64,000 nt of DNA from the NCBI GenBank assembly GCA_001508335.1, contig LGFX01000002.1, forward strand, positions 11,179 to 75,178, given 5' to 3'. The notes beneath the pieces are model-generated. The model was not told where the DNA came from. It worked only from the letters and a program-made list of their open reading frames with translations, and made no database searches. Source of the stretch: a candidate division TA06 bacterium 32_111 (GTDB lineage: Bacteria; Hydrothermota; 32-111). Numbering within the stretch: the first letter of the stretch is position 1; each line of letters starts with the position of its first letter. Of this stretch, positions 1 to 29,507 are shown in pieces. The position numbers were made by a program, and so were the translations under genes.

Positions 1-1211
1 TTTTGCTTGAGAGATACTCTTTGGCAACCAGATTCATTCCATCCCTTAAAGGTGTTATTAAGGCTATATCACTAATCTTATAGAGAGCAACCAATTCATG
101 AAAATCAAAAAACCTGTATTGATACAATACTGGTGTCCAATTAATACTGCCAAATTTTCCGTTGATTTTTCCTACAAATTCGTCTACCTGTTTTTTCATT
201 CTCTGGTAATGCTCAACTCCCGTTCGAGAAGGAACAACCACGAGTATAAGAATGATCTTTTCATGCCAATTAGGATTTTTTTGAAGGAACAGTTCATAAC
301 CTTGTAATCTATTCAGAATACCCTTTGTATAATCCAACCTATCGATTGAAAGTAACACTTTTAAATTTCTAAAACTGTTCTTTAGATTGTTAGATATCTG
401 TTTAACTTCCTTACTTTTTGAGGCATTGTTAAACTTCTTAAAATCTATTCCCATTGGAAAGGTATCTATTTTAATTGTTCTATTTTCAGTCGAAATTATA
501 CCCAAAGTGTGTTCGTATCCCAAAAAACGAAGAACAGAAATTAGAAAATGTTGCATATAATCATAAGTATGAAAACCAACAAGATCTGCTCCCAATATTC
601 CAAGTAGTATCTCTCTACGCCATTCTGCTGGTAATAATCTAAATACCTCAAATGATGGAAAAGGAATATGATGAAAATAACCTATCGATAAATCTTTTCT
701 CCTCTCTCTTAAAAGACCGGGTAATAGCATCAGTTGATAGTCGTGTACCCAGATTATATCACCTGGTTTTGAAATTTCCAAGATTTTATCACAGAAAATC
801 ATATTGACTTTTTGGTAATGTCTCCAATAATCTTCATCGTATACAACATAGGAAGGGAAGTAGTGAAAGAGTGGCCAAATAATCTTGTTACAAAACCCAT
901 TATAAAAATTGTTCACAACCCTATCTGATAAAAAAACTGGAAATGCATTAAATTCAGCCAACCTTTTTGTAAGTATTACTCTTTTATTTTCATCAAAGAT
1001 AGATGTGCCCGACCAGCCGATCCATAAATGTTCCAAATTGCTAAACGAAGTTTTTTTTAATGATTTGAGATAAGCGTCAACTCCAGTAACTAAACCACCG
1101 GCACTCTTCTGCAATTCAAACCTTCCTTTTTTTTCTGTAACGTTAAAAGGTAATCTGTTGGATACTATTAATAATCTTTGTGGTGGTTTTAACTCATATT
1201 TTTTTATCATG
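1..1211 (-). CDS. otsA: alpha,alpha-trehalose-phosphate synthase (GT20 family), N-terminal ~400 codons only; the gene continues beyond the window start
   Basis: Hand translation of the minus strand from the ATG at 1209-1211 gives MIKKYELKPPQRLLIVSNRLP...IIWVHDYQLMLLP...IGYFHHIPFPSFEVFRLLP, which are hallmark OtsA/GT20 motifs. Upstream SD is AAAGGAAAGGA. The frame is open down to coordinate 1. Confidence 0.8.
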
Positions 1212-2966: not shown

Positions 2967-3813
2967 TCTTTCTCCTAAAAAAGAAGTTTGAAAGTGGTTT
3001 TTCAAAACCATCCTCAATCATTATGTGGTTGTAATCAATCCCGTTTTCATAGGAATACTTTTTTATACTCTCATTTCTATCTCTCAAAATTTTCATCCTA
3101 TCTGAAAACGAATCGAAATAAAGGGTCTTTCCACTTTCCATATCTTTCAAATAGACATTTTCAAAATTATTTTTTTCAAACTCCTGTTTACTTTGTAGAT
3201 GGAAAACTATTGAGTCATTTTTGAAAACTCTGTATATCGATAAAGTTTTCATCATATCTTCAAGATTTTCGCCAAAATCGGTTATAAATATAACAAAAGT
3301 AGATCTTTTAACCTTTGGTAAAATATCCAGTAAAACTTTTGCTCCTTTAGTTTCACCATCAGGTTTTATCGTTTCAAGATCCTTGTAAAGATGGGAAAGT
3401 AGGTTCTGCTTTTTTGAAGGTTTTTGAAAAACTTTTAACCTATCACTGTAAAAAACATAACCGAAAGAATCGTTCTGTTTTTTTGCAATAAGAGCGAAAA
3501 TGAAAACTAAAGTTTTTGCATATTCGAACTTGTTTGCAAATCGCATAGATTTTGAACAGTCAAGAAAAATATAAATATCAGTGTCCGACTCACCCTCATT
3601 TTCCCTTACAAAAAGTTTTTCACTCCTTAAAAAAACTTTCCAATCTATCCTTTTAAAATCGTCTCCCTGAATGTATTCCCTGTATTCTGAAAATTCAGAT
3701 GAAAAACCTTTGTATGGAGTTTTGTGTATACCTGAAAAGTACCCTTTCAAAATGTATTTTGATCTTAAAAAAAGATTTTCGATTTTAAAAATTTCTGAAT
3801 AATTTTTATCCAT
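2953..3813 (-). CDS. DUF58 family protein (vWA-like; usually a partner of MoxR AAA ATPases)
   Basis: The ORF has the motif EYREYIQGDDFKRIDWKVFLRSEKLFVRE, which matches the DUF58 signature (Y..GDD.R.IDWK..AR). Confidence 0.65.
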   Translation of the reverse strand: MDKNYSEIFKIENLFLRSKYILKGYFSGIHKTPYKGFSSEFSEYREYIQGDDFKRIDWKVFLRSEKLFVRENEGESDTDIYIFLDCSKSMRFANKFEYAKTLVFIFALIAKKQNDSFGYVFYSDRLKVFQKPSKKQNLLSHLYKDLETIKPDGETKGAKVLLDILPKVKRSTFVIFITDFGENLEDMMKTLSIYRVFKNDSIVFHLQSKQEFEKNNFENVYLKDMESGKTLYFDSFSDRMKILRDRNESIKKYSYENGIDYNHIMIEDGFEKPLSNFFFRRKNVFL

Positions 3814-6153: not shown

Positions 6154-9100
6154 ATGAAAAAGGTTTTAAGTTTAACTTTTTTACTTTTCTTTCTTTCCAT
6201 CTTTCCATACAGGTTGAACCTTGAAAATGATAAAAAAAGTTTTGAAGTTCAGTTTAAACCTTTCGGTAAAAAGTTCATTTTCAACTATGATAAGAATTTT
6301 CTTTTGATACATCAAAAGGATATAGAAATTGAAAAGTTAAAGTTTTTAACACTATCTTTGGGATACCAATTCATAGATGTTGTAAACGATGATCCTTCCT
6401 GTGCTAAAGTAAAAAATATTATAGACTCCATTAAAAGTATAAAAAAAGTTACCGCTATAATACTTATAGGTGATGAAAATAGGATAAATCCATACAGAGG
6501 TTTTTTCAATCCTTACACTTTAAAAAGTTTCCCTTCAGATCTATACTTTTCAAATCCTTTTGTGGATTCCTCTTTTGTAATAATCTCAAGGATACCAGTT
6601 TCAAATCAGGAACAGTTTGACATTTTTGTTGAAAAGTTGAAAAATTTCCTTTCAGATAGTTCAAATTTTGAATTCGTTTTCACAGCACCTTTTTACGACA
6701 ACAACAAAGACTCCACTGAAGATTACCTATACTTTACATATCCATATTTTATAAACAGAGTTTTGAAAGGAAAAATTTATGGTGAGACCAACTCTCCCTT
6801 TCCAAAATACACATACACATACGAAAAATTACCTGACTCTTTACTCTTCCCCTATTACAACTGGATATACGAATTGAGCAGTTTAAACTTAAAGGACAAA
6901 AATTTTATATTCACATACAGGGGGCATGGGAATCCAATATCTTCCGTTATGCCTGATTTTTCTTTAAACAATATTCAATATTTGAATTTTTCAAAAAATG
7001 GGATATTTCTATTCTTCTCCTGTCTTATGGGAAATTTCGATAAACTGATATCAGGTTACGAAAGATCTTTTTCAGAATCACTTTTAGTTTCCGAAAAGAA
7101 CGCTATTCTCACCATTTCCTCATCATCAGAAACATTTTACCAGTACAACAACTATATGATGAACAAATTTTTCGATTTTTTAGATGACAACTCTTTCAAA
7201 CTTGAAACAACTGAAAAGGAAACATTATTTTTAGACCTTTACAGAAAACTTATTTTCTCTTTTATGAACTATGCCGGGTACAACGATTATTCAGTTTCAC
7301 AGGTTCTCTCATACAATATTTTCGGTTTTCCAATTTTGAATCTTAAAAAAAATCCATCTTCAAAACCTTTCTCTTTTAAAGAGAGTATAGACATATCTGA
7401 CTCTATTTTAACAATAGAAATTTTAAGACCCTGTAAAATCAATATCTTTTCAAAGGAGAGAATTATAGATACCTTCAATTTTAACAACGAAACAACATTC
7501 TATTACAAACTTTTCAACATAAAACCAAACTCTTTCTATTACATATCTTCATATTTAAATGGAGTTCTCTTCGTTGATTCGTTTTTTGTTAAAAACGATA
7601 TACTCTCTATTGACACTTTTTTCTTTTCAGATAACTCTGGTAACTCTAACCGACTTATAGAGGAGGGAGAACCTATCCAAATATTTTTTAAAACAAATAA
7701 AAACTCTTATTCCAATGTTGATATTTTTTCAACCGATTGTGAGATAGTTGAAGGGGTGATTCTCGATGGAGAGTTTTTTAAAACAACTGTAAAAACTTTA
7801 AAGGGTGCTTATAATTTAAAGTTAACAATTTCAATAGATTCTTCAAACTTCTATTTTGTTTTTCCTGTAAACAGGTTCAGAATTGTTATCGATTCTATGA
7901 ACTGTCAAGAAACATCGATATTTTACAAGGATGAGGATTATCAGTTTGGAGTATCTGTTTCCTCTTTCGGTATTTTTCCACAGGAAAAATTAAAGTTAAA
8001 ATTCATAGAGAAAAACTATTCTGTCAGTATTGATAGTATAATATTAAATACTCCCTTTGAACATAATATTTTATGGAACTACTTTAGATTTTTTGCCGAT
8101 ACAAACTTTATAAAAGTTGTATACTCGAATGGATTTATTTATGATACTATAACCTATAAAGTTTTTACAACAAAAAGACATTCACTCTTTTTATATGATC
8201 CTTTGAACAACTATCAGAATTCAGATTTTGTTTCATTTTTAAAAGATTCTTTGGATATATCTTTAACCTTATCAGATAAAATTGATTCAACCTTAACCTA
8301 TTCTTCCTACATTTTCTCCTTTGGTCTCTATCCAAAATTACACCATATAACCTCCGAAGAATCTAATTTAATAGAGAATTTAGCATCAAGAAATGTCCCC
8401 CTTCTTGTTGAGGGTGGAGATGTTTTTGGTTATGATAGAGAGGGAATAAGGATAATGGAATTATTCAATATTAACAAATCTTTCGATGGGAATACCCTTT
8501 ACAAAGGAACGGTTTTAAATCTAACTCCCCTTAACATTGATCTTCTTTACGATACAACCTCAAACTACATGGATTACTATGAGACTCCACAGCCTTTGCT
8601 TTCATTTTCAAACAGATATTATGGTTCAATAAAAAATAACAGGATAGCCCAATCTCCACTTCTTAAATATTTTAAACACATTGATTTGAATCTTTTGTAT
8701 TACTTCTACACTATCTTTCTTTTAGATTTTGAGGAAGGTGTATCCTTCAAGGAAACTATTGATATTTCAACGAATCAGAGTTTAGAAATTTTCTCAACAG
8801 TTAAAAATCCACAGATTCTTTTATGTGAATTTCCAGATAACCTTATAGATTCAGTAAAATTTGAAGATGGAAGGGCAATAAAAGGTTTAGGGAAAAAATT
8901 TGTTAAAATTTTTGTTAAAAGGAACTCCCCGCCTTTCCAGACGAAAATATTTTTTTCAACCGGTTTCAAAGAATACCCTTTATACTTAAAATACACTCCT
9001 TACATTCAGACAAAAAACAAGAAGTTTAAAAAGAAGGAAAACATCTCAGAGTTAAAAGATAAAATCTATTTTGACAAGATTGGAAGAAGGGTTTTCAAAA

Positions 9101-9165
9101 ATCAACTTAAAAGTTTAAACATCTATTTTACAGAGGATAAAAAACTTTTGATTTTAAAAAAATAG
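6154..9165 (+). CDS. large secreted gingipain-like (peptidase C25, clan CD) cysteine-peptidase candidate with a T9SS-type C-terminal domain
   Basis: Signal peptide MKKVLSLTFLLFFLSIFP. His-Gly and Cys motifs (FTYRGHGNPISS ... IFLFFSCLMGNFD) are spaced about 40 aa apart, as in caspase-fold C25/C11 peptidases. The C-terminal KIYFDKIGRRVFKNQ...LLILKK resembles a Por_Secre_tail. Confidence 0.5.
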   Translation: MKKVLSLTFLLFFLSIFPYRLNLENDKKSFEVQFKPFGKKFIFNYDKNFLLIHQKDIEIEKLKFLTLSLGYQFIDVVNDDPSCAKVKNIIDSIKSIKKVTAIILIGDENRINPYRGFFNPYTLKSFPSDLYFSNPFVDSSFVIISRIPVSNQEQFDIFVEKLKNFLSDSSNFEFVFTAPFYDNNKDSTEDYLYFTYPYFINRVLKGKIYGETNSPFPKYTYTYEKLPDSLLFPYYNWIYELSSLNLKDKNFIFTYRGHGNPISSVMPDFSLNNIQYLNFSKNGIFLFFSCLMGNFDKLISGYERSFSESLLVSEKNAILTISSSSETFYQYNNYMMNKFFDFLDDNSFKLETTEKETLFLDLYRKLIFSFMNYAGYNDYSVSQVLSYNIFGFPILNLKKNPSSKPFSFKESIDISDSILTIEILRPCKINIFSKERIIDTFNFNNETTFYYKLFNIKPNSFYYISSYLNGVLFVDSFFVKNDILSIDTFFFSDNSGNSNRLIEEGEPIQIFFKTNKNSYSNVDIFSTDCEIVEGVILDGEFFKTTVKTLKGAYNLKLTISIDSSNFYFVFPVNRFRIVIDSMNCQETSIFYKDEDYQFGVSVSSFGIFPQEKLKLKFIEKNYSVSIDSIILNTPFEHNILWNYFRFFADTNFIKVVYSNGFIYDTITYKVFTTKRHSLFLYDPLNNYQNSDFVSFLKDSLDISLTLSDKIDSTLTYSSYIFSFGLYPKLHHITSEESNLIENLASRNVPLLVEGGDVFGYDREGIRIMELFNINKSFDGNTLYKGTVLNLTPLNIDLLYDTTSNYMDYYETPQPLLSFSNRYYGSIKNNRIAQSPLLKYFKHIDLNLLYYFYTIFLLDFEEGVSFKETIDISTNQSLEIFSTVKNPQILLCEFPDNLIDSVKFEDGRAIKGLGKKFVKIFVKRNSPPFQTKIFFSTGFKEYPLYLKYTPYIQTKNKKFKKKENISELKDKIYFDKIGRRVFKNQLKSLNIYFTEDKKLLILKK

Positions 9166-9200
9166 TTTGACTTTAAACTTTCAATTTTTATAATTCTTTT

Positions 9201-10241
9201 ATGATGTTAATTTTTCTAATTCTTTTTTTTCTAACCTCTGAAAACATCTCAGGATACACTATAAAAAAAAGTGATCTTGTTACCTATTATGATACATTAT
9301 CCTTGGAAAGTAAAGTTTCACAACTTTTTATAGTTTACACAAACAACTTCAATTTTTCAAATTATTATCCTGGAGGGGTAATACCTTCAAAAAATCTTTT
9401 AAAGAGTATTTACTATAAAAAAATTCCTTTTGAGAACCTTTTAAAAGATTTTCCAATTCCACCTTTTGTTTGTATAGATCAGGAAGGAGGGAAAGTTGAT
9501 AGGTTATCATTTATAGAAAAAACTCCTTCTTTGAATTCGATATTCCATAACTATGAAAAAAGGGAGGAAATTTTAAAGATAATGGTTTTAAATGAGAAAA
9601 AACTTGGAATAAATTTAAACCTTTCACCTGTTCTCGATCTTTCATACCAGAAAAACTCGATGATGAGAAGAACGGATAGAAACATTCTTTCAACAACCGA
9701 TTCTATTAAAGATTTCATAGATACTTACATATCTTTACACAAAAGCAAAAAAATTCTAAACTGCATAAAACATTTCCCTGGTTATGGAGAAACATTTGAT
9801 AACTCCGATGTAGTGATACCAAAATATAAAGGAGATAAAAAACTTTTTGAAGAGAATTTGGATCTTTTTTACCATTTTTTTGATAAGGTTTCATTCGTTA
9901 TGGTTGCAAACATAGTTTACCCATTTCTCGATTCTGTTCCTGCGGTAAGGTCAAAAAATGTTGTAAAACTTGTTAGGGATAAAAATGAAAAGATTGTCAT
10001 TGTAGCGGATGATATAGCAGCAAAATCAAACAAAAACCCTTACTTGGTTCTGAAAGAATCTTTTAAAAGTGGGGTTGATATCTTTATACTTATGGATGAT
10101 ACACTTTTCGAATTTATGGTAGATTCACTTTCTTTCTGGATTTCAAAAGGAGAAATTGAAGAAAAGGAACTTAATGAAAAACTTTTCAGAATATTTCTTA
10201 AAAAAGAGTATCTTTTTAATACGCTCAAAAAGAAAAGTTAA
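9201..10241 (+). CDS. nagZ: glycoside hydrolase family 3 N-terminal domain protein (NagZ-like beta-N-acetylhexosaminidase), with N-terminal signal/TM
   Basis: Motifs PFVCIDQEGGKVDRL, NLNLSPVLDL and KHFPGYGETFDNSD match the GH3/NagZ catalytic region. Confidence 0.6.
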   Translation: MMLIFLILFFLTSENISGYTIKKSDLVTYYDTLSLESKVSQLFIVYTNNFNFSNYYPGGVIPSKNLLKSIYYKKIPFENLLKDFPIPPFVCIDQEGGKVDRLSFIEKTPSLNSIFHNYEKREEILKIMVLNEKKLGINLNLSPVLDLSYQKNSMMRRTDRNILSTTDSIKDFIDTYISLHKSKKILNCIKHFPGYGETFDNSDVVIPKYKGDKKLFEENLDLFYHFFDKVSFVMVANIVYPFLDSVPAVRSKNVVKLVRDKNEKIVIVADDIAAKSNKNPYLVLKESFKSGVDIFILMDDTLFEFMVDSLSFWISKGEIEEKELNEKLFRIFLKKEYLFNTLKKKS

Positions 10242-10939
10242 ATTCCAACTATTGAAACATCAGGAACAAACTGAGTCATTATATCTCTAAACTTTTTCAA
10301 CTCTTCAGGTTTGTAGGGAACTACACCGGTAAAATCATCATTCAAAGTTTTCCAATTCCTAAACTGCTGGATAACATACTTTTTTGCACCTGTTATCAAA
10401 ACACCTATCTCTCTAACATCCTCAAGAGTTACAAGTTGTGGAACTATAGTTGTTCTGAACTCATAATCAATCTTTGAGTTCAAAAGTATTTCAACAGAAC
10501 TTTTTATCCTTTCAAAATCAATATTTACTCCACATGCTACAACATACTTTGAAGGTGATGTTTTTATATCCATCGCTACGTAATCAATAAGATTTTCGGA
10601 AAGAAGTTTCTTTAGAATTTGTGGATTGTAACCGTTAGTATCAACTTTTACTGGAAGTTTAAATTTTTCTCTTAAGTTTGAAATGAAACCTATAATATCT
10701 TCACTTAAAAGTGGTTCACCACCTGTTATAGATATACCTTCGATGAAATTTTTTCTCTCATCAATAAGAGAAAATAACCTCTCCTCCGTTATAGTCTGTA
10801 AAGAGTCAAAATCATCAACAAGTTCTTTGTTATGACAGAAAGGACATCTGAAGTTACATCCAGCCAAAAAAATGGTTGATGAAACTTTGTCTGGATAATC
10901 AAGTGTGGTAATACCTTGAAAACCTTTTACTTGAACCAT
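10238..10939 (-). CDS. nrdG: anaerobic ribonucleoside-triphosphate reductase activating protein (radical SAM)
   Basis: CNFRCPFCHN radical-SAM cysteine motif; position immediately downstream of nrdD. Confidence 0.85.
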   Translation of the reverse strand: MVQVKGFQGITTLDYPDKVSSTIFLAGCNFRCPFCHNKELVDDFDSLQTITEERLFSLIDERKNFIEGISITGGEPLLSEDIIGFISNLREKFKLPVKVDTNGYNPQILKKLLSENLIDYVAMDIKTSPSKYVVACGVNIDFERIKSSVEILLNSKIDYEFRTTIVPQLVTLEDVREIGVLITGAKKYVIQQFRNWKTLNDDFTGVVPYKPEELKKFRDIMTQFVPDVSIVGI

Positions 10940-10966
10940 TTTAATTTTTAAAACGTTTAGAAAATT

Positions 10967-11140
10967 TTAAACTTTGAACTCTTTTCTATCCTTGAACTCT
11001 TCCCTTTTGCCTTCGTTCCAGTTGTTTACGGGTCTGAAATAACCAACAACCCTACTGTAGATCTCTGTTGGAACAACTTTAACCTTTTCGAGTTCTTCTT
11101 TTTTTTCACCATTCTTCAAAATTGTTTTTGCCTCTTCCAT
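10967..11140 (-). CDS. 57-aa ORF encoding the glycyl-radical domain of class III RNR (SRVVGYFRPV), separated from nrdD by an in-frame TAG
   Basis: Hand translation gives MEEAKTILKNGEKKEELEKVKVVPTEIYSRVVGYFRPVNNWNEGKREEFKDRKEFKV, resembling the NrdD C-terminal RVCGYLG...HGKQ.E...R glycyl radical motif. It has its own SD (AAGGGAGAA) and an ATG directly after the nrdD TAG, in the same frame. Confidence 0.6.
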   Translation of the reverse strand: MEEAKTILKNGEKKEELEKVKVVPTEIYSRVVGYFRPVNNWNEGKREEFKDRKEFKV

Positions 11141-13285
11141 CTATTCTCCTTTTTCAACATATATTTCAACGCCAAACTTTTCGAGTTCTTGGGGTGAATG
11201 ATCGTAAGGGCAGAATTTATGTTCTCCCGGGATATAACCATGAACAGGACATATTGAAAATGTTGGGGTTATTGTGAAATAAGGAAGATGAAAATTCTCA
11301 GCGATCTTCTTAACGAGTTTTTTACATGCACTGATAGAGTAAATCCTTTCTCCGATAAAACCATGTAAAACTGTTCCTCCGGTGTATTGACACTGAAGTT
11401 CATCCTGTAATTTCAGAGCCTCAAAAAGATCATCGGTGAAACCCACTGGAAGTTGAGTTGAGTTTGTATAGTAGGGAACATCTTTACCTGCTGTTATTAT
11501 ATCTGGATAACGTTTTTTATCCTCTTTAGCCAACCTGTAAGATGTTCCTTCTGCTGGTGATGCCTCAAGGTTGTAAAGATTTCCAGTTTCATCTGTGAAC
11601 TTTTCAAGTTTTTCTCTCATAAATTTTAAAGTTTCAAGAGCAAACTCTCTTCCATTTTTTTGCCCTATATTCTCTCCAACAAGCATCAGTGCTGCTTCAT
11701 TCATCCCCACAAGTCCAATAGTTGAAAAATGGTTTGCCCAATATTTCCCATTCATTTTTTTTACATCTTCAAGATAAACTTTGGAGTAAGGATAAAGGTT
11801 ATCCTCTGTAAACTTTTCAAGAATCTTTCTCTTTATTTCAAGTGATTCTTTAGCTAATTGCATCATCCTTTCAAGTTTTGTGAAAAATTCTGATTTGCTT
11901 TTACTGTTGTATGCGATCCTTGGAATATTTATGGTAACAACACCAACTGAACCTGTCATAGGATTTGCTCCAAAAAGACCACCACTCCTTTTTGGATGTT
12001 TATCGATTTTTTCTTCATTAACATTATTTTTGTTTGCGAGTAAGTTCAGTTGTATCTTTTCACTCCTTTTTTTCAACTCCCTGTTATCAAGTCTCAACCT
12101 ACAACACATACTCCTTGCATCTGAAGGATCCATATCAGAGTTTATAAAGTTACTGAAATATGGAATGCCATACTTCGCCGTCATCTCCCATATCTTTTCA
12201 AGGTTTGGATTGTTCCAATCGAAATTCTTTGTGATATTGTATGTCGGAATTGGAAATGTGAAAATTCTACCCTTAGCATCACCTTCCATCATCACCTCGG
12301 CAAAAGCCTTGTTGAACATATCCATTTCCTGCTGGAACTCTTTGTATGTCTCGTTCATCCTCTTTCCACCTATTATTACTCTTTCATCCTTCAAAGTTTC
12401 CGGACAAACAAGATCCATTGTAACATTGGTGAAAGGTGTTTGAAATCCAACCCTTGTTGGGACATTAACGTTGAAAACGAACTCCTGCATAGCCTGTTTA
12501 ACATCATCGTATGTTAACTCATCATACCTTATGAATGGGGAAAGGTATGTATCAAAATTTGAAAATGCCTGTGCCCCTGCTGCCTCTCCCTGTAATGTGT
12601 AAAAAAAGTTTACTATCTGTCCTAATGCTGTCCTGAAATGTTTCGCTGGTTTTGATTCTATCTTTCCAGTTACTCCACCAAGACCTTTTAAAAGTAAAAG
12701 TTCAAGGTCCCATCCACAACAGTAAACTGAAAGCATCCCAAGATCATGTATGTGTAGATCACCTTCCCTATGTGCATTTGCAACCTCTTTTGGATAAACT
12801 TTTTCAAGCCAATAGAGTGCCGATATCGTCGATGAAATATGGTTGTTCAAACCTTGCAAAGAGTAAGACATATTCGAATTCTCGTTAACCCTCCAGTCCA
12901 ATTTTTCAATGTATTCATCCATCAAATCTATACTATCCTTTATCAACTCTTTGCTTTTTCTTAACTGGTTATGCTGCTCTCTGTAAAGTATATAGGCTTT
13001 CGCAGTTTTTGCGTGCCCAGATTCTATGAGCATCTTTTCAACAAGATCCTGAACATTCTCAACAGTTGGTATCCTTCCATCCTTATACAAAACCTCAAGA
13101 ACAGCAACTATCTGGTTTGTAATCTTTTTTGCTGGTTGTATATCATCTCCACCAACAGCCTTTACAGCTTTAAAGATAGCTTCAGTTATCTTGTTTTCAT
13201 CGAATTTTTCTACTCTACCATCTCTTTTTCTTATATATTCGACTTTTGACACTCCTCCTCCATTTTTTTTAGAAAATATTATCAC
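11141..13285 (-). CDS. nrdD: anaerobic ribonucleoside-triphosphate reductase (class III), catalytic polypeptide ending at a TAG before the glycyl-radical domain
   Basis: 714-aa ORF with ATP-cone start (KVEYIRKRDGRVEKFDENKI) and the long NrdD core. The likely true start is the GTG at 13252, preceded by GGAGGAGGA. The C-terminus has a Zn-site-like CPVH...CPYDH and then stops at the TAG at 11141-11143. Confidence 0.9.
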   Translation of the reverse strand: MIIFSKKNGGGVSKVEYIRKRDGRVEKFDENKITEAIFKAVKAVGGDDIQPAKKITNQIVAVLEVLYKDGRIPTVENVQDLVEKMLIESGHAKTAKAYILYREQHNQLRKSKELIKDSIDLMDEYIEKLDWRVNENSNMSYSLQGLNNHISSTISALYWLEKVYPKEVANAHREGDLHIHDLGMLSVYCCGWDLELLLLKGLGGVTGKIESKPAKHFRTALGQIVNFFYTLQGEAAGAQAFSNFDTYLSPFIRYDELTYDDVKQAMQEFVFNVNVPTRVGFQTPFTNVTMDLVCPETLKDERVIIGGKRMNETYKEFQQEMDMFNKAFAEVMMEGDAKGRIFTFPIPTYNITKNFDWNNPNLEKIWEMTAKYGIPYFSNFINSDMDPSDARSMCCRLRLDNRELKKRSEKIQLNLLANKNNVNEEKIDKHPKRSGGLFGANPMTGSVGVVTINIPRIAYNSKSKSEFFTKLERMMQLAKESLEIKRKILEKFTEDNLYPYSKVYLEDVKKMNGKYWANHFSTIGLVGMNEAALMLVGENIGQKNGREFALETLKFMREKLEKFTDETGNLYNLEASPAEGTSYRLAKEDKKRYPDIITAGKDVPYYTNSTQLPVGFTDDLFEALKLQDELQCQYTGGTVLHGFIGERIYSISACKKLVKKIAENFHLPYFTITPTFSICPVHGYIPGEHKFCPYDHSPQELEKFGVEIYVEKGE

Positions 13286-13304
13286 TCAACTTTAAAATGT
13301 CAAT

Positions 13305-13330
13305 AGACTCCACTAAATATAGTGGAGTCT
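13305..13330. promoter_or_regulatory. perfect 11-bp inverted repeat AGACTCCACTA-AATA-TAGTGGAGTCT abutting the nrdD promoter (TTGACA-16-TAATAT); NrdR-box-like operator and/or hairpin terminator
   Basis: The palindrome is seen directly. The half-site cCACtAaA resembles the NrdR box consensus acaCwAtA. It sits immediately upstream of the -35 element of nrdD and about 50 nt downstream of the stop of the upstream lipoprotein gene. Confidence 0.4.
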
Positions 13331-13380
13331 TATTTTGTAAAATACAATATGTTGAAAAATAGTTGAACTTATACTTTCGA

Positions 13381-14334
13381 TTATTTTACAAACATTTCAG
13401 CAACCTTTAAAGGTATTTCGAAGTCTAAAGAATCAAGTGTTGTAAGTTCTAAAAAATCGATAAGATAGATTTTTCCAACATTTGTTGAGATTACAATTTT
13501 CCCTTTGAAGTATTCTATATCTGAAGGTGAGGGAATATTTAAGGTGTTGAGAATGTTTAAATCTTTATCAAGTATATAGAGTTTGCTGAAGATATCCAAC
13601 AAAAAAATTTTATCCTCAACAACTTTTACTTTTCCAAGATAGTTTTCAAAACTCAAAGAATCAAGTTCTACACCATTTTTTATCTTTTTTATTTTGCCTT
13701 TTATATCATCGTAGTTTCCAACAAGTGAAACATATATATTGTTTTCACCATCAATATCAAGGTAGGATGGATTTGAACCTTTTGCAAGATCGGTTTCAAC
13801 ATTTTTAAAATCTTCTGATATTTTGTATATATGTCCTGTCAGTGATGTGTTGTTTGAACCAACATACAGGAAGCCATCTTTATAAACTATCTCTTGTGGT
13901 GCGGTCAAAGTTAGGGAGTCAACTATAGAAAAAGTAGTTTTTTCAATCTTTAAAAGAGAGTTGGAAAGCCAATCCGTAACAAAAATGTAATCTTTACTAC
14001 CTGATATATAGGCAGGAGAACTCAAATCTCCCCTTTCTATCTGTGATATTCTTTTTCCACTAAGATCATACTTTTCAATAGATGGAACTCCACCAAAACC
14101 AGAATTGGTTATGTAAATATTACTTTCATCCACAAAAATATCTGTCGGTGCTGTTCCGGTTGTCAAAAGTGGAGTGGTTTCAAGATTGAATAGAGAATCA
14201 ACGATGTAAACCGCCTCCTTCTCCCAATCAAGGATGTAAACAGAGTTCTCAAAAGGCTCCTTTTTTAAAAGTGAACAGGAAATTGAAAAAATTAAAACAA
14301 ACAAAAGTGAAGAGATCAAAAAGTCTTTTTTCAT
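13381..14334 (-). CDS. lipoprotein (lipobox LIFSISC), beta-rich/propeller-like, translationally coupled to the BtuB-like receptor; candidate BtuG-like B12-binding surface lipoprotein
   Basis: Signal peptide MKKDFLISSLLFVLIFSISCS. Its start codon overlaps the stop of the upstream gene (TAATG). Repetitive beta-strand-like segments. The BtuG assignment is inference from context only. Confidence 0.5.
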   Translation of the reverse strand: MKKDFLISSLLFVLIFSISCSLLKKEPFENSVYILDWEKEAVYIVDSLFNLETTPLLTTGTAPTDIFVDESNIYITNSGFGGVPSIEKYDLSGKRISQIERGDLSSPAYISGSKDYIFVTDWLSNSLLKIEKTTFSIVDSLTLTAPQEIVYKDGFLYVGSNNTSLTGHIYKISEDFKNVETDLAKGSNPSYLDIDGENNIYVSLVGNYDDIKGKIKKIKNGVELDSLSFENYLGKVKVVEDKIFLLDIFSKLYILDKDLNILNTLNIPSPSDIEYFKGKIVISTNVGKIYLIDFLELTTLDSLDFEIPLKVAEMFVK

Positions 14335-16220
14335 TAAACCTCCATCTTCAGGTTAAAAGTTACTTTTCTTCCTTCCTTTATGTATCCTTTTACACTCTCA
14401 ATCCTCAGATCGAAAGGATTGATGATCGAAAATGTTAAGACAAAATTTTTCAAATTGTATTCAACACCTGTTTCATCTAAGGATATATAAAATGGCAAAT
14501 ACTTTGTGTTCTCATTGTTCAAAAATCTGATTGACCTGTACTCAAGGTAGAGAAAGAAATTGAAATTTTTAAATGTATAGAATGCAAAATAGTTTAGATT
14601 TAGAGGTGATGTGTAAAGAAGTAATTTGAACCTTTCAAGGATCATAGGAGAGATCGTTAAAGTTAAAGAGTTGTTTATATTAAAAAATTTTTTGTTATAC
14701 TCAAAACCTATGTATGGGTTATAAGTTTTCAAAATATTTTGAGGAGAGTAAACACCATTTATATTAATCCATCTTATGAGATCTTTATAATAGTTAAAAC
14801 CTGCAAAAAACTTTTTTTCTTCATCTGAAAAAGTTAAAGAGTATGAAAAAATCTTTTCGTTTAAAAGATTCTCATTACCTTTAGAAAATATATCACCAAC
14901 CCAGTACAACTCGTTGAATGTAGGTCTTCTCGTTGAGATTTTAATAGAGTTATAAAAAATATAATCTTTTAAGTAAAATTCTTTTGAAACGGTAAAACTG
15001 TAAACATAATTTTTTTTCAAAAAATCTTCATTAAAATTTGAAGAGAAGGAAAAAGAGTTTGAAAATTTTAAGGACCCTAAAATAAGGTTAGAAAACAAAC
15101 CGTAAAAGTATTCGTTGACATTTGAAACTTTTGTTGATTTTATAAAATTTTTCTGAAAGAATGTTCCAACTCCACTCTTATTCTTTTCAAATTTTATTAT
15201 GATATTATCTGAAAAAGTTTTTGAAGTATCGAAAACTCTTAAATCTTTGTTGTCATAAATATAGGTGTAAATGTTGTTAGAATAAAAAATTTTTAGAAAC
15301 TTTGAAAGATTAAAAGTTAAATTAAAAATTCTGTTGCCTTCAAATATTGTAGAGTTGAAAAATCTATGTCCCTGAATTCCCGGATCACCTGTTTGGCTCT
15401 TTCCATATATATATAGTATTGAAAAAAAATCTCTTTTAAAATAAAAGTAATTACTAAATCCATTTTGGTATGAGTTTTTTAGTTTTTCTCCATAAGGTAA
15501 AACCAAATCATTCTTGTCAAAATAAAATTTTCCAAATTTAAAACCTTTAAAAGATAGGGTCAAATCAATATCGTAAGATTTTTTATCATCAAAAGTTATA
15601 TTTATTTTTGTTTTATCACTTTTTTCAATCCGAAAATCTATTCCAGATGAAAAAAGGTTTTCTCCAAGAAAGTTGGATCTGTCATTTTTATAAAAATTTA
15701 AGGAAGAGAAAAGGTTTTTGGGAAATAAAGATATTGGAACCATTCTTGATTGCTGGTTTACAATTGGAACACCATCTATGGACAAAATGTTATCCTCATT
15801 TAAAAGTCCATCAACAGAAATAATATAACTCCTGTTGTACTCTCTCAAAGTTACCTGTGGTATTTTTTTTATTATGGAAAACAGATCTTTCTCTTCGATC
15901 TTAATATTTAAAATATCACTTTCTATCCTTTCATTCTCTACAACAAGTGGTTTATACATAAAAGGTTCAATTTCAAGATAGATACTCATCGTATCATCTG
16001 TAACCTTAAATCTTTTTTCCTTATAACCCAATGAGGATAAACTTATCTCTTTTCCCTTCTGGATTTCAAATGGTGTTTTAAGTTGGTAAGTTTTTCCATC
16101 ATAGGAAACTTTTACAAAAACAATACTATCATAGGTGGATTTATCGTAAACATATATATATGCTGAAAATATTTTCAGAAAAAGGGAAAAAATAAATAAA
16201 AATACTAATATTTTTTTCAT
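14334..16220 (-). CDS. TonB-dependent outer-membrane receptor-like protein (BtuB-like) under a cobalamin riboswitch
   Basis: ORF 14334..16250. The likely start is the Met at 16220 (MKKILVFLFIFSLFLKIFSA signal) with SD AAGGA. A plug-like motif (IPQVTLREYNRSYIISVDG...ILSIDGVPIVNQ) resembles the TonB-dependent receptor plug IRG...NRVLVLIDGVP. The C-terminal approximately 400 aa show beta-barrel-like alternating aromatics. Confidence 0.6.
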   Translation of the reverse strand: MKKILVFLFIFSLFLKIFSAYIYVYDKSTYDSIVFVKVSYDGKTYQLKTPFEIQKGKEISLSSLGYKEKRFKVTDDTMSIYLEIEPFMYKPLVVENERIESDILNIKIEEKDLFSIIKKIPQVTLREYNRSYIISVDGLLNEDNILSIDGVPIVNQQSRMVPISLFPKNLFSSLNFYKNDRSNFLGENLFSSGIDFRIEKSDKTKINITFDDKKSYDIDLTLSFKGFKFGKFYFDKNDLVLPYGEKLKNSYQNGFSNYFYFKRDFFSILYIYGKSQTGDPGIQGHRFFNSTIFEGNRIFNLTFNLSKFLKIFYSNNIYTYIYDNKDLRVFDTSKTFSDNIIIKFEKNKSGVGTFFQKNFIKSTKVSNVNEYFYGLFSNLILGSLKFSNSFSFSSNFNEDFLKKNYVYSFTVSKEFYLKDYIFYNSIKISTRRPTFNELYWVGDIFSKGNENLLNEKIFSYSLTFSDEEKKFFAGFNYYKDLIRWININGVYSPQNILKTYNPYIGFEYNKKFFNINNSLTLTISPMILERFKLLLYTSPLNLNYFAFYTFKNFNFFLYLEYRSIRFLNNENTKYLPFYISLDETGVEYNLKNFVLTFSIINPFDLRIESVKGYIKEGRKVTFNLKMEV

Positions 16221-16223
16221 ATC

Positions 16224-16409
16224 CATCCTTGTCAGGACGGACCCTGTCAAAGCAGGTTCCGTTATCAGGCAGGTTTCCTGGCTTGCGGCTTAAACCTCCT
16301 GCCACCTTCCCCTTTTACGGGTGGTATAAGGCATTCGTATCCGCTTACAGTTGCTTGACAGCAGTGGATTTTCACCACTTTCCCTTTTACCTCAAAAGAG
16401 CACCTGACA
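16224..16409 (-). promoter_or_regulatory. cobalamin (AdoCbl) riboswitch in the 5' leader of the BtuB-like gene
   Basis: The minus-strand RNA contains AAAAGGGAAAGUGGUGAAAAUCCACUGCUGUCAAGCAACUGUAAGCGG. This matches the conserved cobalamin riboswitch core AAaGGGAA..GGUGaAAauCC..GCuG.C..GCAACuGUAAgcGG. It also contains the B12 box AAGCCAGGAAACCUGCC. The element is a GC-rich island in AT-rich DNA. A promoter (TTGATT-15-TATAAT) lies at 16415-16441. The 3' end overlaps the SD of the downstream gene. Confidence 0.85.
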
Positions 16410-28334: not shown

Positions 28335-29507
28335 ATGGAGATAAGAAAAGAATCCTACTGTGGTTCCGAAAATCCTTTCGATATACATGTAAAAATAGAA
28401 CCCGCGGGAAATGGTATAGATATCGAGGTTTTCTCAACTTTGGGAGAAGAACAGTTTAAAAAAATAAAGGAACTTGTTGAAGATATACTCAATTTTTATG
28501 GTATAGTTAATGCTAAAATAACTTTAAAAGATTTTGGAGCACCAGATTTTGTTATAAGAGCGAGGATGGAAACGGTTATAAGAAGAGCTTCACAGGAAAT
28601 TGAAAAAAAAGTTTACTTGGAGAAGATGGATCTGAGATACATCCCTTTAAGATCGATTTTTAGAATAAATATTAACAACCCCAAATACCTAAACGATTCT
28701 TTCAAACTTAAACCTGATGCTTTTCTTCTCGATCTTTACAAAGGTGTTTCGATAAATGAAAAGGACAGTGCAAGGATACTTGTTGGTAACTTTCTTAATG
28801 AAAAATTGGATGAAAGAATCTTTAGAATGATAAAGATAAATCCCCTTGATTTAGGTGGAAACGATGATATTGATTATTTAACTCAGTTCTCTCCAGATTT
28901 TTTTGTTCTTTCAAAATGTGAAACAGAATATGATGTAAAAAAGAGTTTAGAACTGGTTGAAAAAGCTGAAAAGAAGTATAAAATCAACAGAATATTTCTA
29001 ATTCCATCCATAGAATCTGTTAAAGGTTTAATAAATCTATACGAAATATCTTCAGTTTCAGACAGAGTTTTTGGTGCTATTTTGAACATAAAAGAGTATC
29101 TGACATCCTTATCGTTAAGCTCAGAAAATGTTACAGATCACATTTACTTTGCCAAACTTGAATTCATTACTAAAGTTAAGGCAGCAAACATAATGGCATT
29201 TGAAACTACGACATCAAAAATAGATAATCCAGATGAGGTCAAAGAAGAGTTAAAACTCTCCTACGATTTAGGTTTTGATGGAAAAATAATAACACATCCA
29301 AAACTAATTGAAATCACACATTCTATTTTTAAACCCGAAGGAAACATCGATAAATATGAAAATATAGTTTCATTGTACAATAAAGCATACGATATGGGTT
29401 CAGGTCTTGTTGTAAACAACTCTTTCCTTGTTGATAGATACGAAATAGCAAGATCTTTAAAATTCGTTCATCTTTTAAAAATGGACAAAAAAGAGCAAAA
29501 GGAGTAA
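28335..29507 (+). CDS. fusion of a citrate lyase acyl-carrier-protein-like domain (CitD) with a CitE/HpcH-HpaI-family beta-subunit-like lyase domain
   Basis: The N-terminal 90 aa align with CitD (DIHVKIEP...IDIEV...EEQFKK...ILNFYGI..AKITLKDFGAPDFVIRARMETVIRRAS versus E. coli DVMIRIAP...IDLQI...EKQFGD...[27 protein letters not shown]). The C-terminal domain ends with the GFDGKIITHPKLIEI motif of CitE-like lyases. Confidence 0.5.
   Translation: MEIRKESYCGSENPFDIHVKIEPAGNGIDIEVFSTLGEEQFKKIKELVEDILNFYGIVNAKITLKDFGAPDFVIRARMETVIRRASQEIEKKVYLEKMDLRYIPLRSIFRININNPKYLNDSFKLKPDAFLLDLYKGVSINEKDSARILVGNFLNEKLDERIFRMIKINPLDLGGNDDIDYLTQFSPDFFVLSKCETEYDVKKSLELVEKAEKKYKINRIFLIPSIESVKGLINLYEISSVSDRVFGAILNIKEYLTSLSLSSENVTDHIYFAKLEFITKVKAANIMAFETTTSKIDNPDEVKEELKLSYDLGFDGKIITHPKLIEITHSIFKPEGNIDKYENIVSLYNKAYDMGSGLVVNNSFLVDRYEIARSLKFVHLLKMDKKEQKE

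Follow-up and report, generated by a model that had tools for sequence, protein, structure and literature searches.

A class III ribonucleotide reductase gene split ahead of its glycyl-radical domain, with the radical glycine on a separate 57-residue protein

A 64,000-nucleotide stretch of contig LGFX01000002.1 from the candidate division TA06 bacterium 32_111 (the window) carries, on its minus strand, a class III ribonucleotide reductase (RNR) operon in which the nrdD gene is divided in two. The enzyme is oxygen-sensitive and supplies this anaerobe with the precursors of DNA. The larger open reading frame (ORF) lacks the glycyl-radical domain (GRD) of NrdD. This domain is encoded by a separate 57-codon ORF that follows it directly and precedes nrdG, the gene for the radical S-adenosylmethionine (SAM) activase. 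Genome comparisons show that the same two-piece arrangement is conserved across many bacterial and some archaeal lineages. Very probably, the two products are obligatory partners in a class III RNR of two subunits, of which the one that bears the radical would be replaceable. Residues of the large subunit are numbered here from its longest ORF of 714 amino acids and those of the small subunit from its own ATG. Coordinates are collected in Table 1.

The large ORF contains an ATP-cone, a catalytic barrel, an MCCR finger loop and a presumed zinc site. Positions 1-526 of the 562-position PF13597 NRDD profile match its amino acids 135-694 (619 bits, cut-off 26.2; E=1e-185), and it scores 537 bits against TIGR02487 (cut-off 326) and 1061.7 bits against NF006126 (cut-off 548). 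Positions 533-562 of the same PF13597 profile match the small ORF (E=1.8e-9). This second match is not a chance one, because its 37.3 bits compare with a cut-off of 26.2. Among 51 aligned homologues there is no variation at C189 (the conserved beta-A cysteine), M393-C394-C395-R396, C679, H682 or C692. Finger-loop motifs of class III RNRs fall into MGCR and MCCR classes (PMC9669993). By sequence, the large subunit would be a class III RNR in every respect except that no GRD lies on the same chain; at the zinc site C679, H682 and C692 are conserved, and an invariant H696 stands where the fourth Cys is absent. Assignment to the class II (B12-dependent) RNRs was considered and rejected, since the large ORF reaches only 73 bits against a cut-off of 1125, and does so only through its ATP-cone. 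The downstream activase matches the NrdG2 model TIGR02495 (208.7 bits, cut-off 131.15) as well as PF04055.

An initial annotation had described an in-frame TAG that splits nrdD, an ATG as the very next codon and a 57-residue ORF with the motif RVVGYFRP, and all of this is borne out on the minus strand. The large ORF ends ...CPVHGYIPGEHKFCPYDHSPQELEKFGVEIYVEKGE / ...FSICPVHGYIPGEHKFCPYDHSPQELEKFGVEIYVEKGE and is then closed by the TAG. The small subunit opens with a Lys/Glu-rich leader (amino acids 1-22), continues with the GRD core PTEIYSRVVGYFRPVNNWNEGKREEFKDRKEFKV and contains no Cys. Within the clade of the window, the leader alternates Lys and Val (..KVKVVP..) directly ahead of the GRD strand. 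An alignment of 64 small ORFs shows S29, R30, G33, Y34 and P37 as invariant; conservation at V31, V32 and R36 is at least 90%. Two small subunits from Desulfuromonadales (loci L023 and L067) read SRVCGFFRP, with Phe in place of the otherwise invariant Tyr. Neither Pfam nor NCBIfam holds a dedicated model for the small protein. Its sole Pfam match is PF13597, and Gly_radical (PF01228) does not match at E values up to 1.

The small ORF has translation signals of its own. It had been credited with a Shine-Dalgarno sequence at suitable spacing, which is indeed present 5 nucleotides before the ATG, although the sequence is AAGGAG, in the context AAAGGAGAA, and not AAGGGAGAA. The final codons of the large gene (E-K-G-E) supply this element, and the layout is the same in the relatives L001 and L002. 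Because the Shine-Dalgarno sequence is embedded in the large gene and the ATG abuts the TAG, translation of the two ORFs is probably coupled through termination and reinitiation. Among the relatives, ATG is the start codon of nearly every small ORF and is preceded by AGGAGG, AGGAG or GGAG. In the window, TAG closes 11 of 52 long ORFs. The genetic code is therefore standard, with TAG as an ordinary stop, as had been supposed.

The large subunits carry a C-terminal feature that is peculiar to the split state. When the large and small products were joined end to end (the concatenate), their 120 best homologues comprised 94 proteins without a GRD and 26 fused ones. Every match with at least 64% identity to the concatenate lacks the GRD. 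The fused homologues, which come mostly from Caldicellulosiruptor, Thermoanaerobacterium and relatives, lie at 62-64%. In these fused proteins the fourth zinc ligand is a Cys (CPxCG), and the chain reads ...GEHFSCPTCGKECEVYSRVVGYYRPV, with CPxCGxxCEVYSRV at the same place. The tails of the GRD-less proteins follow the pattern CP-[YH]-[DE]-H-[ST]-x-E-E-L-x-[KR]-[YF]-G-[IV]-E and end 15-31 residues on. The His three positions after CP and the Gly are each present in 94 of 94 tails and the Leu in 93, and no tail contains a Cys. It appears that the fourth zinc-ligand Cys has been replaced by an invariant His (H696) on the large subunit, which should therefore fold the zinc site by itself. Metal binding at C679, H682, C692 and H696 is presumed from the zinc site of T4 NrdD. 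Together, the large-subunit tail and the small-subunit leader form a stretch of about 40 residues at the junction that is absent from fused relatives and partly conserved.

One other origin for the tail was rejected. GVEIYVEKGE might be read as a decayed copy of the GRD strand, but EIY occurs only in the subclade of the window. Tails elsewhere end in GIEIEISE, GVVVED or GIKADK, and the EKGE codons in the window are constrained by the embedded Shine-Dalgarno sequence.

In the Planctomycetes-Verrucomicrobia-Chlamydiae (PVC) group and in DPANN archaea, large subunits end ..CPLE.. and small subunits begin MAKCGEKTE.. or MDETKCNKETE.... The break here appears to be a simple fission between the third and fourth zinc ligands, so that in these organisms the zinc site may span both subunits.

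Small subunits outside the window clade are often rich in Cys at their ends (..GCGCG, ..GCCR, ..CACSK, ..SCDCAKK, ..ECECKK, ..CSCEYQG, ..VCDCE, ..KKDCC). Examples come from Thermodesulfobacteriota and Aquificales (L014, L017, L025, L027, L022, L038, L052), the PVC group (L034, L042, L048, L015) and Leptospiraceae (L020, L033), with further cases at L076 and L081. These endings resemble the redox Cys pair found at the C-terminus in class I and II RNRs.

Split loci are widespread. A scan of GTDB (one genome per species) with a profile of the small ORF gave more than 597 matches, the best 80 of which (L009-L088) were examined. At least 36 of these 80 loci are split, 31 by automatic scoring and 5 by eye. 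About 31 carry a fused nrdD, 2 carry a fused nrdD plus an extra small GRD ORF, 5 have an orphan small ORF with no nrdD within 3.5 kb, and the remainder are interrupted by contig ends. The split form occurs in Thermodesulfobacteriota, including the cultured isolate Thermodesulfatator autotrophicus S606 (NZ_LSFI01000031.1, small ORF at about 28604-28777), in Aquificales and Hippea, in Spirochaetota and Leptospirales, and in Desulfuromonadales. It is also present in Victivallales, Lentisphaeria, Verrucomicrobia and Thermoguttaceae of the PVC group, in WOR-3, TA06 and Aegiribacteria, in a Patescibacteria genome and in a DPANN archaeon (Diapherotrites). In a neighbour-joining tree of the barrel, split forms fall into at least three groups: a large mixed clade that includes the window, a PVC clade, and the DPANN archaeon, whose sequence nests among fused archaeal ones. 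The number of independent fission events is only indicative, because the tree is without support values. A profile search of 1.84 billion cluster representatives returned 5,201 matches. The best-150 list contains 141 proteins not returned before; 138 of them have fewer than 120 amino acids and 139 begin with Met.

Three of the scanned loci (L009, L068 and L084) have nrdD frames of 1,043-1,146 codons. They exceed the usual length by 350-450 codons, a sign of likely inteins or other insertions in the barrel region. At L016, a masked stretch of 100 N lies exactly over the zinc-site region.

In some instances, small GRD genes are found in several copies or in other settings. Three identical tandem small ORFs of 41 amino acids are present on a Lentisphaeria chromosome (CP091727.1; L039, 3274-3811), and two diverged tandem copies of 50 and 51 amino acids in a Victivallales genome (L007, 3501-3888). 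Each copy has its own Shine-Dalgarno sequence, and all lie between a GRD-less nrdD and nrdG. Two loci from the Candidate Phyla Radiation (CPR) instead carry an extra small GRD ORF between a fused nrdD and nrdG (L012, 3640-3918; L019, 3653-3937). This placement makes the extra ORF a true spare-part candidate for a class III RNR. These two ORFs, along with those at L072 (3282-3605) and L081 (3438-3650) and protein P0056, are 70-107 amino acids long. In L012, L019, L072 and P0056 an N-terminal CxxC...CxxC zinc ribbon is fused to the GRD, and L081 has a single CxxC.

Orphan small ORFs with no nrdD within 3.5 kb occur at L004, L045, L050, L054, L072 and L081. The L004 orphan (3501-3701 of the locus, on the 5-Mb contig ERZ25042269:ctg13247c) encodes a 66-residue NrdD-type GRD within a phage-like module. 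This module also encodes a DNA polymerase exonuclease subunit, a topoisomerase-like protein, a DnaC-like loader and an integrase, with no nrdD or nrdG nearby. The arrangement is reminiscent of Y06I, the pyruvate formate-lyase (PFL) spare part of phage T4. No free-standing phage copy was found when a phage collection was searched with the orphan small GRD. The search gave four matches, three annotated in NrdD genes and the best, which is unannotated, an 802-residue fused NrdD. A further ORF on the chromosome of L039 (L080, 3477-3944) and protein P0255 (174 amino acids) join a GRD core to a C-terminal extension of 110-130 residues that opens with a hydrophobic, lipobox-like stretch (..LLAALVLPALTGC.. 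/ ..LAAFGLAFLPGC..). They are either odd fusions or cases in which a stop codon before a lipoprotein gene was missed.

Free-standing GRD genes beside fused nrdD, together with the orphans, invite another interpretation of the window. The small ORF could be a GrcA-like spare part that serves a fused NrdD encoded elsewhere, with the GRD-less large protein being inactive or having a regulatory or nucleotide-binding role. The search for a second nrdD was confined to the loci and the window, which leaves room for such a partner. No second RNR was found among seven other window ORFs scanned with Pfam, including all four of more than 500 amino acids; these gave TPR/cyclase, DUF4388/TPR, glycosyl hydrolase 3 or no match. 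However, the large subunit keeps all catalytic and zinc-site residues, and the last 240 codons of its gene have a dN/dS of 0.03. It is always encoded immediately upstream of the small ORF, and usually also of nrdG. It has the invariant tail of the split state, and in the window clade translational coupling would tie production of the two proteins together. A role as a spare part alone is improbable on this evidence.

Readthrough or recoding of the stop would give a single-chain NrdD as the functional product, with the TAG as a regulatory leaky stop. In the window and in L001, whose large subunit is 93% identical, the small ORF is in frame and follows the stop without a gap, and the predicted structure of the concatenate is compatible with the NrdD fold. 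The relatives nevertheless differ at the junction in frame, gap and stop codon. L001 has TAA|ATG where the window has TAG. The WOR-3-like L002 and L003 (large subunits 81% identical) have TAA, one nucleotide and then ATG, and their frames differ because of this one-nucleotide spacer. The gap is 2 nucleotides in the Diapherotrites archaeon and 46 in a Victivallales genome, where two small ORFs each lie behind AGGAGG. Across the 31 automatically scored split loci, gaps range from -32 to +174 nucleotides, 23 loci are out of frame, and the large ORF ends with TAA in 17, TAG in 9 and TGA in 5. Nearly every small ORF retains a Shine-Dalgarno sequence and ATG of its own, TAG is a normal stop in the window, and the large subunits share a conserved module that belongs to the split state. 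These comparisons indicate that programmed readthrough, one of the explanations first offered, is not the general mechanism, and as an account of the window it is very unlikely.

A lone in-frame stop in what looks like a single gene is the usual signature of an artefact, and the genome was assembled from a metagenome. The stop could be a mistake of sequencing or assembly, or a recent mutation that left a pseudogene; sequencing error and inactivating mutation had been named among the possibilities at the outset. Sequencing error is excluded, since seven independent assemblies (six sequencing runs and GCA_001507835.1) agree at every base of the TAG|ATG junction, and every closest relative also carries a stop there. 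The orthologous junctions show a conserved split and not fusion through a sense codon; the nearest fused proteins are only about 63% identical. For the core of the small ORF, dN/dS is 0.10 between the window and L001 and 0.06 between L001 and L002, with dS of 0.6-1.3. Because both pieces are under purifying selection, the tail is specific to the split state and the arrangement is conserved across phyla, recent pseudogenization is excluded as well. The presence of the split in at least 36 species-level genomes, a cultured isolate among them, and of partly conserved junction sequence that fused relatives lack leaves error or decay with a negligible chance of being correct.

Joining of the two products after translation, by split-intein-like trans-splicing or another ligation, is scarcely credible: RNR genes are frequent intein hosts and some related large ORFs reach 1,040-1,150 codons, but the junction (..EKGE / MEEAK..) has no Cys, Ser or Thr nucleophile and no intein Asn/His blocks, its flanks are short, highly charged and very variable between clades, and no intein family is among the Pfam matches at E values up to 1.

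For structure prediction, AlphaFold2 (AF2) was run on the concatenate with a corrected alignment that combined truncated large-subunit rows and core-only small-subunit rows. The resulting model has the NrdD fold, with a mean predicted local distance difference test (pLDDT) score of 73.5 and a predicted template modelling score of 0.71, and its best PDB matches are class III RNRs. Secondary structure predicted around the junction is listed in Table 1.

Several points weigh against the interpretation of the locus as a two-subunit enzyme. A first AF2 run gave pLDDT values below 50 for the GRD, in an alignment where MAFFT had evidently placed the GRD-less tails (..GIEIYVEKGE) over the GRD strand (..PTEIYSRVVGY), and the values from the second run are still only moderate. 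Placement of the Gly loop beside the finger-loop Cys, pairing of the tail and leader strands, assembly of the two proteins, formation of a radical on the small one and activity of the complex are all proposed from sequence comparison. That the small subunit is consumable and that this favors repair is a hypothesis, drawn by analogy from GrcA and from small genes that occur in several copies or as orphans. Since the search for fused nrdD covered the loci and the window, a second copy could lie elsewhere in these genomes. Finally, the two ORFs of the window and L001 are in frame without a gap, and some readthrough product might be made in this sublineage.

The split form belongs to the same family, and has the same operon partner, as the canonical single-chain NrdD of phage T4, Thermotoga maritima, Prevotella copri and Streptococcus thermophilus. 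Its nearest fused relatives are the NrdD proteins of Caldicellulosiruptor and Thermoanaerobacterium (about 695 amino acids, 63% identity). Canonical and split forms have in common an ATP-cone, the barrel, an MCCR finger loop, a zinc site (presumed in the split form) just before the Gly loop, the motif SRVVGY[FY]RPV..WN.GK and an NrdG2-type activase. They differ in that the chain of the split form is interrupted after the third zinc ligand and ahead of the Gly-loop strand, which places the radical glycine on a separate 57-residue protein. A tail of 15-31 residues and a leader of about 22 replace the CPxCGxxC knuckle, and the fourth Cys gives way to His.

GrcA (YfiD) of E. coli and Y06I of phage T4 resemble the small subunit in being small, free-standing proteins that consist of a flexible N-terminal part and a GRD (PMC8683613, PMC13450708). 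Presumably they also share activation by the cognate radical-SAM activase and non-covalent insertion into a barrel without a working GRD. The parallel with GrcA drawn in the initial annotation is apt as an analogy and does not extend to family membership, since GrcA is homologous to the C-terminus of PFL and the small subunit to that of NrdD. Furthermore, GrcA serves as a backup for an enzyme with a GRD of its own, whereas the adjacent partner here has none. Because this partner never has a GRD, the small protein would be obligatory. Unlike GrcA, it is encoded within the nrd operon and is probably coupled in translation.

Other RNRs in pieces are built differently. The class II NrdJa/NrdJb of Pseudomonas aeruginosa and Thermus phage phiYS40 also come from two consecutive ORFs, separated by a short gap or none, and assemble non-covalently (PMC4520616, PMC3653736, PMC9669993), but they represent another RNR class and another break point. 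Phage nrdD genes with group I introns, inteins or homing-endonuclease genes, such as T4 nrdD/sunY and that of Aeromonas phage phiAS4, are likewise annotated in at least two coding pieces (PMC3653736). In those genes mobile elements intervene, and most are repaired by splicing. The split nrdD is unlike them because nothing intervenes between its pieces, which are broken at one conserved position and have their own translation signals. An interruption by an intron, endonuclease gene or intein was rejected for the window, where the gap is 0 nucleotides, and for its relatives, whose gaps of -32 to +174 nucleotides are too short. Small polypeptides that bind the catalytic subunit of a glycyl radical enzyme (GRE), as proposed here, are known as the gamma subunit of hydroxyphenylacetate decarboxylase, the beta and gamma subunits of benzylsuccinate synthase and the beta, gamma and delta subunits of (1-methylalkyl)succinate synthase (PMC13450708). 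Those accessory subunits are Fe-S or rubredoxin-like proteins with no radical glycine, and the GRD stays on the catalytic chain.

Table 1. Features of the split nrdD operon in the window, and predicted secondary structure of the concatenate
Feature	Position	Strand	Remarks
nrdG	10238..10939	-	radical-SAM activase, 233 amino acids; 27 nucleotides downstream of small ORF
Small glycyl-radical subunit	10967..11140	-	57 amino acids plus TAA (10969..10967); sequence MEEAKTILKNGEKKEELEKVKVVPTEIYSRVVGYFRPVNNWNEGKREEFKDRKEFKV
Glycyl-radical motif R-V-V-G-Y-F-R-P	11030..11053	-	radical Gly33 codon GGT 11044..11042
TAG stop of large subunit	11141..11143	-	abuts ATG 11140..11138 of small ORF, 0-nucleotide gap
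Split-specific C-terminal tail S-P-Q-E-L-E-K-F-G-V-E-I-Y-V-E-K-G-E	11144..11197	-	conserved among GRD-less proteins
Shine-Dalgarno AAGGAG of small ORF	11146..11151	-	5 nucleotides ahead of ATG
Presumed zinc site C679-x2-H682 ... C692-P-Y-D-H696	11198..11251	-	wholly on large subunit
Lys/Glu/Asn-rich insertion RSEKIQLNLLANKNNVNEEKIDKHPK	11990..12073	-	about 27 amino acids, residues ~405-432; directly after finger loop
Finger-loop motif M393-C394-C395-R396	12098..12109	-	double-cysteine MCCR type; presumed thiyl-radical Cys
nrdD large subunit	11141..13252	-	703 amino acids from GTG 13252; without GRD
ATP-cone domain, amino acids 17-106	12968..13237	-	PF03477, E=5.8e-24
Promoter-like site: TTGACA, 16 nucleotides, TG-n-TAATAT	13276..13303	-	10 of 12 consensus matches, extended -10 TG
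Perfect 26-bp palindrome AGACTCCACTATATTTAGTGGAGTCT	13305..13330		inverted repeat upstream of nrdD
Large-subunit tail, helix	residues 698-704		AF2, concatenate; pLDDT about 83
Large-subunit tail, beta-strand	residues 706-711		AF2, concatenate; pLDDT about 83
Junction, disordered	residues 714-729		AF2, concatenate; pLDDT <50
Small-subunit leader, strand	residues 731-736		AF2, concatenate; pLDDT 68-82
GRD, strands	residues 740-745 and 748-751		AF2, concatenate; pLDDT 68-82
GRD, helix	residues 757-765		AF2, concatenate; pLDDT 68-82

The start of the operon (gene order large, small, nrdG) can be placed with some care. The longest-ORF start of the large gene, at 13285, sits within a -10-like hexamer. 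Most likely, the true start is GTG 13252, which has GGAGGAGG upstream and with which the gene calls of other assemblies agree. The promoter-like site is a consensus match only, and such sites are as numerous in the region as expected from shuffled sequence. The perfect palindrome is a possible operator of the operon. Its core, CCACTATATTTAGTGG, resembles an NrdR operator box, and a weaker palindrome (TTGTATTTTACAA, at about 13341-13353) lies some 30 bp further upstream. The position of two palindromes just before the promoter-like site suggests that NrdR controls the split operon.

The insertion after the finger loop (context MCCRLRLDNRELKKR-[insert]-SGGLFG) is confined to the WOR-3/TA06-like subclade and is absent from spirochete and fused relatives. 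It is predicted by AF2 to be disordered, with pLDDT below 50 for residues 407-444.

Synteny around the operon (window positions 6154-10241 and 13381-16250) is kept in the close relative L001. In both, a Peptidase_C25-family protein of about 1000 amino acids and a glycosyl hydrolase 3 gene lie downstream of nrdG. Upstream of nrdD are two ORFs without Pfam matches, of about 317 and 630-640 amino acids, which both recur in L002. None of these conserved neighbors has an obvious tie to RNR function.

A working model can be proposed for the two-subunit enzyme. NrdG would use SAM to abstract a hydrogen from Gly33 of the small subunit while this is free or loosely tethered. The small subunit would then dock non-covalently and bring its Gly loop into the barrel to face the finger-loop Cys, the place that the covalent GRD takes up in the NrdD of T4, T. 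maritima and P. copri. Docking may be aided by the split-specific tail of the large subunit and by the leader of the small one, which is basic and predicted to form a beta-strand. In the presence of oxygen, a polypeptide is cut at its glycyl radical. Because the radical would sit on a separate protein of about 50 residues, only this piece would need to be replaced after such cleavage, and not an enzyme of about 760 residues. Tandem copies (L039, L007), extra genes (L012, L019) and the phage-like orphan (L004) lend the replacement idea some indirect support.

A bolder version of this model is plausible but tentative. In many anaerobes, the small subunit may be a freely exchangeable 'radical cartridge', a protein of about 50 residues that NrdG activates in solution, that docks into the GRD-less barrel and that is discarded after oxygen damage. 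The same family might also supply true spare parts, in the form of the extra copies beside fused nrdD in CPR genomes, the orphans and the copy in a phage-like element. Small subunits that end in CxC, as in some clades, could in addition relay reducing equivalents in the manner of the C-terminal tails found in class I and II enzymes.

A class III RNR split at the GRD has not been described in the searchable literature, a scope that leaves out most subscription journals. Spare parts for other GREs were raised only as a possibility in 2021 (PMC8683613), and a review of June 2026 names the formate lyases as the sole GRE class with identified spare-part proteins and leaves the existence of such proteins in other classes to be determined (PMC13450708). 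The loci described here, which are present in cultured organisms such as T. autotrophicus and Victivallis vadensis, bear directly on this question for GREs other than formate lyases. They also have consequences for annotation. The small ORFs are at present unnamed or named as whole reductases, and the large subunits are treated as complete NrdD proteins. In large phylogenetic surveys with a length filter, proteins without a GRD will have passed as ordinary class III enzymes.

All GREs face the problem that their radical glycine lies deep in the barrel but has to be accessible to the activase, and that oxygen, by cutting the chain at this residue, ruins the entire enzyme. A radical loop on its own protein of about 6 kDa would be a minimal physiological substrate for the activase. 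Such a split system would allow activation to be separated experimentally from catalysis, and it would offer the cell a cheap route of repair. If the exchangeable small subunit proves real, this would be the first natural GRE in which storage of the radical and catalysis reside on different polypeptides.

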